Below are positions 4,553-5,427 of a stretch of DNA of 5,680 bases, in pieces (position 1 is the first letter of the stretch; each line of letters begins with the position of its first letter). The stretch lies in IMG/VR virus record IMGVR_UViG_2684622669_000004, positions 1 through 5,680 of that record, one strand, 5' to 3'. The position numbers and the translations under genes were made by a program. The stretch is from a virus (lineage: Duplodnaviria; Heunggongvirae; Uroviricota; Caudoviricetes). The notes beneath the pieces are model-generated. The model had not been told where the DNA came from. It made no database searches and saw only the letters and a program-made list of their open reading frames with translations.

Positions 4553-4556
4553 TTCA

Positions 4557-5108
4557 ATGACTCAAAACTATGAACTGATTGTGAAAGGGATCCGCAATTT
4601 TGAGAATAAAGTTACGGTAACCTTAGCGTTACGGGACAAAAAACGCTTTGACGGTGAAATTTTTGACCTGGACATCTCGCTGGACCGTGTTGAAGGTGCC
4701 GCGCTGGAGTTTTATGAGGCAGCAGCCAGAAGGAGCATCAGACAGGTCTTCCTGGATGTTGCTGCCGGGTTATGTGAAGGGGGTGAGCAGTCGCCGGAAA
4801 AGCGCCCCATAATTTTAGAGGCGCAGAATGTGTGGATAACCTACAAAGGAAAGCTACCGGGAAGAATTACTGGTTCTCTGAAGACTCCACCGGCGGCATT
4901 GCGGTCAGAAAAAGACGATATTGAATCGCCCATTGAAAAACTGGAGGGCAGAGTCGCTGATCTGAATAAAAAATTGTCGGTGCTGATCCCTTCTGAAGAT
5001 GAAAAAAAACGCCGCGATGAGCAGTTTGCGGCGTTTTACGATTATTGCATTGAGGTTACTCGCAGGAATTTTGTGAAGATTTTTGAGGAGGGTAAATCTC
5101 TTCAGTAA
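4557..5108 (+). CDS. Hypothetical protein, 183 aa, predicted soluble (no TM or signal peptide); inserted between holin and endolysin
   Basis: Strong RBS GGGGAGAG (4542-4549) inside the holin 3' end, ATG 4557 only 4 nt after the holin stop. Protein-like composition and mixed alpha/beta character, with a charged C-terminal segment (…EKLEGRVADLNKKLSVLIPSEDEKKRRDEQF…). No family recognised. Confidence 0.7.
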   Translation: MTQNYELIVKGIRNFENKVTVTLALRDKKRFDGEIFDLDISLDRVEGAALEFYEAAARRSIRQVFLDVAAGLCEGGEQSPEKRPIILEAQNVWITYKGKLPGRITGSLKTPPAALRSEKDDIESPIEKLEGRVADLNKKLSVLIPSEDEKKRRDEQFAAFYDYCIEVTRRNFVKIFEEGKSLQ

Positions 5109-5316
5109 GCTTAATGGCGGACTCTGCAATTAATTCTGGAAGGTCCGCAAGGTCATCTGTCAGTGGGAATGATGAAAAATCGGCGGCAGTTCTGTTAAGA
5201 ATTGTTTTAACGAACTCCTTTTCATTATCCGGCAACAAGTTGATTAGAGCCACGACAGCTTGCCTGAGTGCGATTAAATCAGCAAAAGTTTGTTTTGGTA
5301 GATTTGGATAATCCAT
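5056..5316 (-). CDS. Hypothetical small acidic protein, 86 aa, convergent with and 3'-overlapping the 183-aa gene
   Basis: Minus-strand ATG at 5316 with strong RBS GAGGTG 4 nt upstream. Translation MDYPNLPKQTFADLIALRQAVVALINLLPDNEKEFVKTILNRTAADFSSFPLTDDLADLPELIAESAIKLTEEIYPPQKSSQNSCE is helical and amphipathic, net charge about -7. The longer 161-aa version in the ORF track (GTG 5541) would run into the endolysin N-terminus and is less likely. The + strand alternative 5114-5311 translates to low-complexity S-rich sequence. Confidence 0.5.
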   Translation of the reverse strand: MDYPNLPKQTFADLIALRQAVVALINLLPDNEKEFVKTILNRTAADFSSFPLTDDLADLPELIAESAIKLTEEIYPPQKSSQNSCE

Positions 5317-5338
5317 AGTCACCTCTGTGTTTATCAGA

Positions 5339-5370
5339 TTGACATACCCTGGCCAGTGCCCACCACTGGC
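5339..5370. promoter_or_regulatory. Consensus -35-like TTGACA (5339-5344) followed by a perfect 7-bp inverted repeat GCCAGTG-cccac-CACTGGC (5352-5370) in the divergent intergenic region
   Basis: Seen directly in sequence. There is no U-tract on either side, so it is more operator-like or an RNA structure than a terminator. No good -10 follows the TTGACA at 16-18 bp. Confidence 0.4.
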
Positions 5371-5406
5371 GGGGTGAAGGCTTAACATATCCAGGGATTC
5401 GGAACC

Positions 5407-5423
5407 GATAAATCCTGATAAAT
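5407..5423. repeat. Two direct GATAAAT repeats spaced 10 bp (5407-5413, 5417-5423) immediately upstream of the endolysin start
   Basis: Seen directly in sequence. One helical turn apart, ending 5 bp before ATG 5428. Confidence 0.5.
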
Positions 5424-5427
5424 ATCC

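Follow-up and report, generated by a model that had tools for sequence, protein, structure and literature searches.

The locus analysed here raises the question of why the holin and endolysin genes of an E. coli prophage should stand 875 bp apart, with two genes between them, and what these two genes might be for. The window, i.e. the entire 5,680-nucleotide stretch of DNA that was analysed, carries the gene of a phage 21-type class II holin, or pinholin (plus strand, 4346–4552; PF04971, E 1.2e-32; phrog_9876/phrog_20), and the 5' part of an R21-type SAR endolysin gene (plus strand, 5428–5680; PF00959, E 4.6e-8; phrog_7). The endolysin begins with a Gly/Ala-rich N-terminal segment (MNAKIKYGLSAAVLALIGAGASAP), followed in the translation by the catalytic spacing E34-x8-D43-x5-T49. 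Together, the two Pfam matches, this segment and the E-x8-D-x5-T pattern place the pair in the phage 21-type pinholin/SAR endolysin family. The holin is encoded in its 68-aa form only, which is also the product called by PGAP. The S21-68/S21-71 dual-start motif is missing, the upstream in-frame ATG that serves as the antiholin start having been replaced (ATA CAT CAG ATG, versus ATG TAT CAG ATG in relatives).

Between these genes, a 183-aa ORF on the plus strand (4557–5108) begins 4 nt beyond the holin stop (4552) and converges with an 86-aa acidic ORF on the minus strand (5056–5316; pI 4.3, net charge -7.5). Their 3' ends overlap by 53 bp (5056–5108), and a 111-bp gap (5317–5427) leads from the 86-aa ORF to the endolysin ATG. 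On re-reading, these coordinates and spacings were found to be as given in the preliminary description, and so was the lack of a Shine-Dalgarno sequence before the endolysin ATG at 5428. A Shine-Dalgarno-like GGGGAGAG, read directly from the sequence, lies at 4542–4549 on the plus strand within the final holin codons, so the 183-aa ORF is likely to be translationally coupled to the pinholin gene. The convergent layout, with an overlap of 53–59 bp, is seen again at 11 independent loci of E. coli, which diverge in DNA by up to ~15%, and is also found in Salmonella and on other enterobacterial contigs. In view of this recurrence across divergent loci and other genera, the ORF arrangement is not mere chance, and the preliminary description was right to take both ORFs as real. 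Within the region, variability is lowest in the overlap itself, with 5.7% variable sites compared with 10–34% elsewhere.

The 183-aa protein, which had been regarded as unrecognisable, is a member of the YdfR/DUF1327 family. Residues 1–112 (plus strand, 4557–4892) match PF07041 with an E-value of 5.9e-42 and 142.2 bits, against a gathering cut-off of 25 bits, and PGAP labels the product 'YdfR family protein'. The AlphaFold2 (AF2) model of the complete chain is of low confidence (55.6), and residues 1–73 are predicted as three strands plus a helix with a pLDDT of 70–86. The dN/dS of the domain is 0.24–0.38. DUF1327 DNA is present in 4312 of 5426 complete E. coli genomes (79%); among phage records, 421 match the holin-to-endolysin DNA and 106 carry a relative of the 183-aa protein. 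A late-strand position between S21-type holin and endolysin genes, as in the window, is likewise occupied in K-12 Qin and many phages. The YdfR family is a routine occupant of this junction. Accordingly, the earlier view of the two genes as an inserted pair holds only in part: the two convergent ORFs are present, but the DUF1327 domain mostly occurs without the 86-aa ORF (106 versus 8 phage records). The preliminary description had also allowed that the locus might reduce to a common junction protein facing an unconserved minus-strand reading frame; the first half of this proved correct, and the minus-strand ORF is nonetheless conserved.

As to activity, K-12 YdfR is reported to bind the catalytic, N-terminal half of RNase E through residues 1–72 and to co-purify RNA, and its overproduction alters few transcripts (PMC13232886). 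This 2026 paper was the only literature found on DUF1327, ydfR or the junction. RNase E binding is reported for the K-12 protein only, whose binding region shows 79% identity to the 183-aa protein; by homology, the likeliest activity of the 183-aa protein would be RNase E- or RNA-directed, late in infection. As few transcripts responded to overproduction, the RNase E link may be of minor consequence.

The DUF1327 domain is shared with loci that are devoid of the rest of the protein, and here it is fused to a helical module of ~70 residues (aa 113–183; plus strand, 4893–5108), which matches phrog_36381/15975 and is modelled by AF2, with low confidence, as two helices. Over its final 17 codons, it is antisense to the 3' end of the 86-aa ORF. 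The region is a separable protein module, judging from its distribution: it is also found without DUF1327, at the N-terminus of 161-aa and 213-aa proteins encoded after the holin gene, and a stand-alone 73-aa Salmonella homologue is 43% identical (E 1.6e-4) and corresponds to residues 149–183. A 176-aa form of YdfR is present on 463 contigs.

The 86-aa ORF matches phrog_2572 over its entire length (E 3.1e-50, residues 1–86 of 86) and is present in 314 of 5426 complete E. coli genomes. Its 93-aa Salmonella homologues are 49% identical (profile E 5e-14) and match the same PHROG family with an E-value of 3.5e-27; further members of the family comprise 89–93 residues. Four independent indels in the ORF are all in frame, and variation is concentrated at the third codon position (5/5/11). 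The dN/dS is 0.3–0.5, with 0.32–0.46 from a comparison of small counts (7 synonymous versus 8 non-synonymous changes), and purifying selection on the ORF is only mild. A Shine-Dalgarno sequence, GAGGTG (minus strand, 5320–5325), precedes the ATG by 3 nt. The 27 nt ahead of this ATG are identical in six of 10 loci; in the same set, GAGGCG replaces GAGGTG in three and ACG replaces ATG in one. AF2 predicts a three-helix bundle with a moderate pLDDT of 72.7. Taken together, the homologues, in-frame indels and conserved ribosome-binding site (RBS) indicate that the ORF is a real gene and very probably coding, as had been anticipated. PGAP calls it a hypothetical protein, and some records leave it unannotated. 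The gene is dispensable, as its start codon is gone from L009, a locus with the 176-aa form of YdfR, and an IS3 element interrupts it in another (L010). A longer, 161-aa minus-strand reading from a GTG at 5541 was ruled out, as conservation, RBS and homologues all favour the ATG at 5316. Likewise, the DUF1823 label given to a homologue in record PV340545 was not reproduced with the Pfam model, and neither the 86-aa protein nor its Salmonella homologue matched any Pfam family at E <= 0.1.

The 86-aa gene is followed by a predicted intrinsic terminator (minus strand, 5002–5037), which consists of AAAACGCCGC, a 12-nt loop, GCGGCGUUUU and UUUU, and is embedded in codons 149–161 (EKKRRDEQFAAFY) of the 183-aa ORF. 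Folding yields -14.6 kcal/mol (z -2.6) for the minus-strand RNA, and the plus strand also forms a hairpin (-22.4 kcal/mol, z -3.3). All 11 loci that carry the 86-aa ORF retain an intact hairpin, whereas in five loci lacking this ORF it is degenerate or one-armed. It is further found in 11 of 12 IMG/VR cassettes, and its stem is retained in Salmonella. A search of positions 4553–5427 with Rfam returned no RNA family.

Upstream of the gene, a candidate antisense promoter or regulatory region (minus strand, 5384–5425) abuts the endolysin start codon. It comprises a 21-nt motif, ATATTTATCAGGATTTATCGG (5425->5405), with a direct repeat of ATTTATC at a 10-bp period, and a -35-like TTTATC (5412–5407) separated by a 17-nt spacer from a -10-like TATGTT (5389–5384). 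A resemblance of the repeat to activator sites, such as those of lambda CII or the OmpR/PhoB class, was considered and is not claimed. A sigma-70 consensus scan upstream of the ORF returned nothing above threshold; the candidate fits only seven of 12 consensus positions and was therefore missed. Motif and geometry are kept ahead of the gene's homologue in Salmonella and in a further locus (L026), with no endolysin gene adjoining. TATGTT occupies a fixed position in 43/43 E. coli-type cargo-bearing IMG/VR loci with an identified cargo family, and the single Salmonella-type IMG/VR locus has TATTGT instead. In a smaller set of loci, the motif was present in every locus with an antisense cargo ORF and missing from the five without one. 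This strict association was weakened by the larger IMG/VR sample, in which 42 contigs without a cargo ORF carry the motif ahead of the endolysin gene, so the motif may serve endolysin expression instead of, or besides, that of the cargo.

These cargo-less contigs also bear on the reading in which the 86-aa ORF yields no protein and 5109–5427 acts only as the 5' leader or regulatory region of the endolysin gene or as a source of antisense RNA. The missing consensus promoter, the records without annotation, and the start-codon loss and IS3 insertion are all compatible with it. We nevertheless deem it very improbable, given that the Salmonella homologues are proteins of the same length and architecture, that each indel preserves the frame, that GAGGTG is conserved at its distance of 3 nt, and that changes are enriched at third positions.

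Comparison with loci carrying other genes in the same place delimited the cassette. One locus, where YdfR has 114 residues and the antisense ORF is an unrelated one of 90 aa, has only 4343–4892 and 5384–5680 in common with the window, whereas K-12 Qin shares only 4424–4762 and 5418–5680. The co-travelling unit encompasses the C-terminal ~70-aa module, the hairpin, the 86-aa ORF and the upstream motif. Where blastn similarity to the alternative cargo cassette breaks off, its bounds fall at ~4893–5383, and the conserved motif extends it to 5425. Behind the same motif, at least six unrelated PHROG families are found (2572, 2411, 1853, 18136, 25324 and 10490), and BLASTP and hhalign detected no homology among 2572, 2411, 1853 and 18136. 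Other cargo ORFs are paired with a 114-aa YdfR devoid of the helical module, and a crude test indicated no terminator for certain other cargo families. The G+C content of the cassette is 0.41–0.44, compared with 0.51 for the window. Morons have been defined by their own promoter and terminator, deviating composition and location in the late region (PMC8065619). The cassette shows the low G+C content, presence/absence polymorphism (314 genomes with the 86-aa ORF versus 4312 with DUF1327 DNA, and alternative cargo in the slot) and a terminator of its own, i.e. the hairpin plus U-run running from 5037 to 5002. The 86-aa gene and its terminator are therefore best read as occupying an ordinary phage 'moron' slot.

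The genomic positions of the family bear on two further readings. The Salmonella members of the 86-aa family are encoded downstream of Rz and antisense to the late operon, overlapping a helical partner ORF with the same hairpin; in L026, the pair follows Q-TerB-DUF3927. Both genes could be lysis-timing accessories of the pinholin/SAR-endolysin system, antiholin-like or endolysin-modulating. They lie within the lysis cassette, translation of the 183-aa ORF is probably coupled to that of the holin gene, and another timer could be useful to a holin without an antiholin start; moreover, a K-12 ydfR mutant came up in an envelope-integrity screen, according to a citation in PMC13232886. However, the Salmonella homologues of the 86-aa protein are encoded outside the holin-endolysin pair, beside unrelated holins (PF05449, PF16931) and a GH19 endolysin, and relatives with the same module retain the 71-aa dual-start holin. 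Furthermore, neither protein has a membrane segment and the 86-aa gene points away from the late operon, which makes a role in timing decidedly unlikely.

A second reading has the helical C-terminal module and the 86-aa protein as a functional two-protein unit, either effector and neutraliser (akin to toxin/antitoxin or abortive-infection systems) or regulator and antagonist, whose expression would be coupled through antisense by the overlap and hairpin. The pair co-occurs at three genomic positions in two genera, with an overlap of 53–59 bp throughout: it separates the holin and endolysin genes in E. coli, follows Rz in Salmonella and is found behind Q-TerB-DUF3927 in L026. The Salmonella partner is homologous to residues 149–183 of the 183-aa protein, the partner's dN/dS outside the overlap is 0.33, and the convergent layout with a bidirectional terminator may recall type I toxin-antitoxin loci. 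Against this, the partner is conserved just where the hairpin and overlap lie, and there DNA-level constraint from the minus-strand gene could suffice as an explanation; the module is seen without the 86-aa ORF in 161-, 213-, 296- and 329-aa forms, and other cargo ORFs dispense with the module. Overexpression of ydfR is non-toxic in K-12, though the K-12 protein does not contain the module. PADLOC and PDB searches were empty, as was Pfam beyond DUF1327. On balance, we consider a two-protein unit rather unlikely, although it is the alternative that we take most seriously.

These searches extended to both proteins. Pfam and NCBIfam gave nothing beyond DUF1327, and PADLOC returned no match when run on the two proteins and on two alternative cargo proteins. 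Foldseek searches of both AF2 models against the PDB found nothing at E <= 0.001, and that of the 86-aa model against BFVD was likewise empty, as was the comparison of the 86-aa family profile with PDB sequences. Matches to the PARP1 linker in a profile search of PDB sequences (E 0.004) were regarded as compositional noise. Profile matches to a 975-aa TPR/CHAT-like protein and a 1521-aa repeat protein (eight stretches each) were rejected as repeat artefacts, and a hydrophobic 95-aa match was also discarded. Hence, the searches gave no HMM or fold support for toxin/antitoxin, defence or lysis-timing functions, and the preliminary description of both proteins as lacking a known function stands apart from the DUF1327 assignment.

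The explanation that we prefer, with a little better than an even chance of being correct, is that two interlocking things meet at this locus, namely a late YdfR-family gene and an antisense moron cassette. Through its probable coupling to the pinholin gene, the former would be made only during Q-antiterminated late transcription. On the minus strand, the cassette comprises, in this order, a promoter-like motif, a ~65-nt leader, a strong RBS, the gene of the predicted three-helix 86-aa protein and a terminator. Motif, RBS, ORF and terminator hairpin were all observed and are conserved, and the cargo gene is swapped between loci. This cassette would be transcribed by itself, with the prophage state or early infection as the likeliest time, and its transcript would halt at the terminator within the late gene. 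Late transcription modified by Q would pass through the hairpin and meet the cassette head-on, and the two genes would be expressed at different times. Most likely, the 53-bp overlap simply follows from the junction of cassette and late gene and need not be regulatory in itself. Our best guess for the 86-aa protein, from its size, charge, orientation and the diversity of the slot, is a small inhibitor-type accessory directed against a host or competing-phage target.

A bolder extension, which we regard as improbable, would have the 21-nt motif mark a dedicated antisense slot in enterobacterial lambdoid prophages that exchanges at least six unrelated families of small, mostly acidic helical proteins. 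Such a slot would be a previously unrecognised inhibitor-type island (superinfection exclusion, anti-defence or host takeover), and the phrog_2572 case would be a mobile two-gene switch of 86-aa protein, helical partner and hairpin, with halves expressed in opposite phases, i.e. in the lysogen and late in the lytic cycle.

If the preferred reading is true, the 183-aa ORF, which PGAP currently labels a truncated pseudogene in several genomes, should be annotated as a full-length YdfR-family protein plus C-terminal helical module, and the 86-aa ORF would be worth keeping as a real gene. The current understanding of phage lysis would be unchanged. The slot, consisting of motif, small cargo gene and, for at least two cargo families, terminator, is compact and easily cloned, and its occurrence in prophages of pathogenic E. 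coli and Salmonella would make it a reasonable hunting ground for new prophage-encoded inhibitors. A terminator written into coding sequence would also be a neat dual use of DNA.

The window has a holin and an endolysin of the same families as the lysis cassettes of phage 21 and DLP12. However, essD and rrrD are adjacent in DLP12, and the window has 875 bp and two genes in between, an endolysin gene uncoupled from any upstream stop codon and a holin with the 68-aa start only. The closest parallel to the 183-aa gene is essQ-ydfR-rrrQ of K-12 Qin, where ydfR has the same late-strand place, after an S21-type holin gene and before an R21-type endolysin gene. K-12 YdfR (P76160; PF07041) belongs to the same family, with 79% identity over residues 1–77, but comprises 103 residues, has a stop codon overlapping the rrrQ start, and has neither the helical C-terminal module nor an antisense gene. 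In the type I toxin-antitoxin locus par of pAD1 (Fst-RNAII), convergent transcripts have a common bidirectional terminator. The likeness to the window is one of layout only, i.e. convergent units whose 3' ends overlap at a single hairpin able to fold on either strand; here, both partners are conserved protein-coding ORFs and neither is a small hydrophobic toxin. Finally, the lambda morons bor and lom are, like the 86-aa gene, small late-region accessory genes that face against the late operon, with their own terminator, deviating G+C content and presence/absence polymorphism among related phages. In lambda, bor lies after Rz, and the Salmonella homologue of the 86-aa gene occupies this very place. 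The 86-aa protein is unrelated to Bor and Lom in both sequence and fold and is neither a lipoprotein nor an outer-membrane protein, and in the window the predicted terminator sits within the coding sequence of the convergent late gene, with the two ORFs overlapping.

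The window represents late-region DNA of an Escherichia coli lambdoid, Stx-phage-like prophage, with genes for RusA (5–346), a Q antiterminator (337–1032), a TerB-like protein (1270–1701), a SASA/NanS-p-type esterase (2182–4053), an S21-type class II holin (4346–4552) and, from 5428, a SAR endolysin of which only the 5' portion is included. Between the last two, a 183-aa ORF (4557–5108, plus strand) starts 4 nt past the holin stop and is preceded by GGGGAGAG (4542–4549). An 86-aa ORF of pI 4.3 (5056–5316, minus strand) overlaps it by 53 bp and is separated by a 111-bp gap from the endolysin ATG (5428), which lacks a Shine–Dalgarno sequence. 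The preliminary description had reported this arrangement, and all its coordinates for the two ORFs, their overlap and the endolysin gap hold; its interpretation, an inserted convergent gene pair, is only partly supported. The segment concerned is 99.6% identical to prophages of about 45 complete E. coli genomes, O111:H11 strains among them.

Several further features of the window were recorded. The STnc100 sRNA (RF02076), a gammaproteobacterial sRNA, has a strong Rfam match at 1870–2056 on the plus strand (116 bits; gathering score 47); it is flanked by the TerB/DUF3927 genes and the esterase gene. The TerB-like gene carries a flagged internal stop in the closest RefSeq genome, and the TerB-like and DUF3927 pair (1270–1865) recurs in the compared locus L026 (970–1544) beside a 93-aa/144-aa module. 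Two terminator-like hairpins with T-runs occupy the gap between esterase and holin genes (4061–4090, minus strand, and 4264–4290, plus strand). At 4337–4348, the in-frame codons are ATA CAT CAG ATG vs ATG TAT CAG ATG in relatives, so that the pinholin has its 68-aa start only and the dual-start motif of S21 cannot give its longer product, the "antiholin", here, because the upstream ATG is replaced by ATA.

The 183-aa protein, not recognised in the preliminary description, belongs to a known family and occupies the position usual for it. Its residues 1–112 match DUF1327 (PF07041) in Pfam with 142 bits vs a cut-off of 25, and PGAP labels the gene "YdfR family protein". In the K-12 Qin prophage the order is essQ–ydfR–rrrQ, and the ydfR stop codon overlaps the start codon of the endolysin gene; in DLP12 the holin and endolysin genes are immediate neighbours. 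DNA of the DUF1327 part was found in 4312 of 5426 complete E. coli genomes, at up to nine copies each; a relative of the protein occurs in 106 phage records, and the DNA from holin to endolysin is matched by 421. The protein is 79% identical to K-12 YdfR across residues 1–77. Two-hybrid and co-purification assays are reported to show K-12 YdfR binding to the N-terminal half of RNase E, for which residues 1–72 suffice; RNA co-purifies with it, and its overproduction is not toxic and alters few transcripts (PMC13232886). The literature search for functional reports on YdfR returned this paper only. AlphaFold2 (AF2) predicts three strands and a helix for the N-domain (pLDDT 70–86) and disorder at residues 74–127.

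The last 71 residues constitute a separate module, predicted as two helices with low confidence. One locus whose YdfR has 114 aa has only 4343–4892 and 5384–5680 in common with the window, and K-12 Qin only 4424–4762 and 5418–5680. PHROGs 36381 and 15975 match residues ~117–180, and the module is N-terminal in proteins of 161 and 213 aa that are encoded after the holin gene and have no DUF1327 domain; it is also contained in DUF1327 proteins of 211, 296 and 329 aa. In several RefSeq genomes (L004, L006–L009 and L011), PGAP treats the gene as a 112-codon truncated YdfR pseudogene ("missing C-terminus"). The ORF is intact and conserved there, and the call seems wrong, since even forms only 77% identical retain the full 183-aa length.

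The 86-aa ORF very probably represents a genuine gene. It has a full-length phrog_2572 match and is annotated by PGAP, GAGGTG lies 3 nt 5' of its ATG, and AF2 predicts a three-helix bundle (pLDDT 72.7). A word-indexed search returned E. coli relatives with identities of 85% or more and a few short fragments, one from Salmonella, and nothing beyond these. An exhaustive profile search recovered a related 93-aa Salmonella enterica family (49% identity, profile E 5e-14), including a member with records from at least 1000 contigs, together with two more related groups of 89 and 93 aa. The E. coli variants differ by four independent indels, each a multiple of three, and by mostly conservative substitutions, with variable sites distributed 5/5/11 over the codon positions. 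The dN/dS of 0.32–0.46 is similar to that of the DUF1327 domain (0.24–0.38) and above that of the holin and endolysin genes (~0.1); a non-coding reading is possible and is given lower weight. Among ten loci, the 27 nt ahead of the ATG are identical in six, GAGGCG replaces GAGGTG in three, and ACG replaces the ATG in one. The latter (L009, NZ_CM177010.1, ~1613), in which PGAP does not annotate the ORF, carries a 176-aa YdfR variant found on 463 contigs, including Shigella. In strain 06_3044 (L010, NZ_CP074942.1, 245–1693), an IS3-family element lies within the ORF past codon 64. Given this start-codon change and this interruption, the gene is dispensable.

A terminator of the 86-aa gene runs from 5037 to 5002 on the minus strand (AAAACGCCGC, a 12-nt loop, GCGGCGUUUU, then UUUU). 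It starts 18 nt past the stop, folds at −14.6 kcal/mol (z −2.6) and was missed by a consensus terminator scan because of its long loop. It sits within codons 149–161 (EKKRRDEQFAAFY) of the 183-aa ORF, and the plus-strand hairpin at the same site folds at −22.4 kcal/mol. The terminator is intact in all 11 loci with the 86-aa ORF. Where that ORF is missing, a 15-nt indel removes one arm in the 296-aa variant, and in three further variants the stem has a mismatch or the U-run is broken. Salmonella loci keep the stem with a different loop, and L026 and L027, another compared locus, have another strong hairpin at the equivalent place.

Upstream of the 86-aa ORF, a 21-nt motif (ATATTTATCAGGATTTATCGG, 5425 to 5405, minus strand) is followed after 17 nt by TATGTT (5389–5384); together they are a conserved promoter candidate only. 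The Salmonella and L026 homologues keep motif and geometry with a different spacer sequence and no adjacent endolysin gene. Scanning IMG/VR matched at least 120 contigs, and the motif abuts the endolysin start codon in 118 of the 120 matches listed. Among these, TATGTT is at its fixed position in 43/43 E. coli-type contigs with an identified cargo family, cargo being the small antisense ORF behind the motif, and the lone Salmonella-type contig has TATTGT there. At least six PHROG families (2572, 2411, 1853, 18136, 25324 and 10490) and a 233-aa ORF occupy the slot, all without assigned function and with no detectable relation among them. In other Stx phages, L019 (Stx2 phage 86, 1501–2631) and L016 (1468–2435), an antisense 104-aa ORF (phrog_1853) fills the equivalent slot, behind either a YdfR protein of 268 aa or a non-DUF1327 protein of 213 aa.

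The motif also occurs without cargo, on at least 42 IMG/VR contigs (L037 and L035 among them) ordered holin–YdfR (114/116 aa)–endolysin. At least 21 of these keep motif, TATGTT and a leader fragment, which looks like clean cargo loss by deletion; at least another 21 have the motif and lack TATGTT. Since it is not exclusive to cargo, the motif may also, or instead, be part of the endolysin leader. The cassette leader CCAGTGGTGGGCACTGG (5340–5372, minus strand), common to cassettes with phrog_2572 and phrog_1853 cargo, contains a 6-bp inverted repeat. Its Salmonella counterpart GTGGTGGGACACTG keeps the sequence without the pairing, which favours a sequence motif over a structure.

The genomic context of the 86-aa family is not alike between genera. 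Salmonella loci run from Q through two holins, GH19 endolysin and DUF2514 (Rz-like) to a late-strand ORF of 73 aa, the antisense 93-aa gene and terminase, which puts the 93-aa gene at the position of lambda bor. The family gene comes after Q–TerB–DUF3927 and a 144-aa ORF in L026, and after a 243-aa DUF1327 protein in L027. In every case a late-strand ORF shares its final 53–59 bp with this gene. The Salmonella 73-aa ORF is 43% identical to residues 149–183 of the 183-aa protein (E 1.6e-4) and has a dN/dS of 0.33 outside the overlap. From these contexts, the overlap and this homology, the unit that is conserved consists of helical module, hairpin, small acidic gene and motif; the inserted pair first proposed, DUF1327 protein plus small gene, is not that unit. 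A two-protein unit or a role in lysis timing is possible, again at lower weight.

The reading with the best support combines a routine late gene of the YdfR family, fused to the helical module, with an antisense moron-type cassette that has its terminator written into that module. Late Q-modified transcription would ignore the hairpin and collide with transcription of the cassette, and unmodified upstream read-through may stop at the plus-strand hairpin. Searches for the function of the 86-aa protein with Foldseek against PDB and BFVD, PDB sequence profiles, Pfam, NCBIfam and PADLOC gave no informative match. Neither protein family is new to the catalogues, and hundreds of genomes carry annotations of the arrangement; the slot has a modest chance of proving useful as a source of new small phage inhibitors. 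When scored against a published definition of morons (PMC8065619), the cassette shows three of their features, namely its own terminator, a deviating composition (G+C 0.41–0.44 in the module vs 0.51 in the window) and presence/absence polymorphism.
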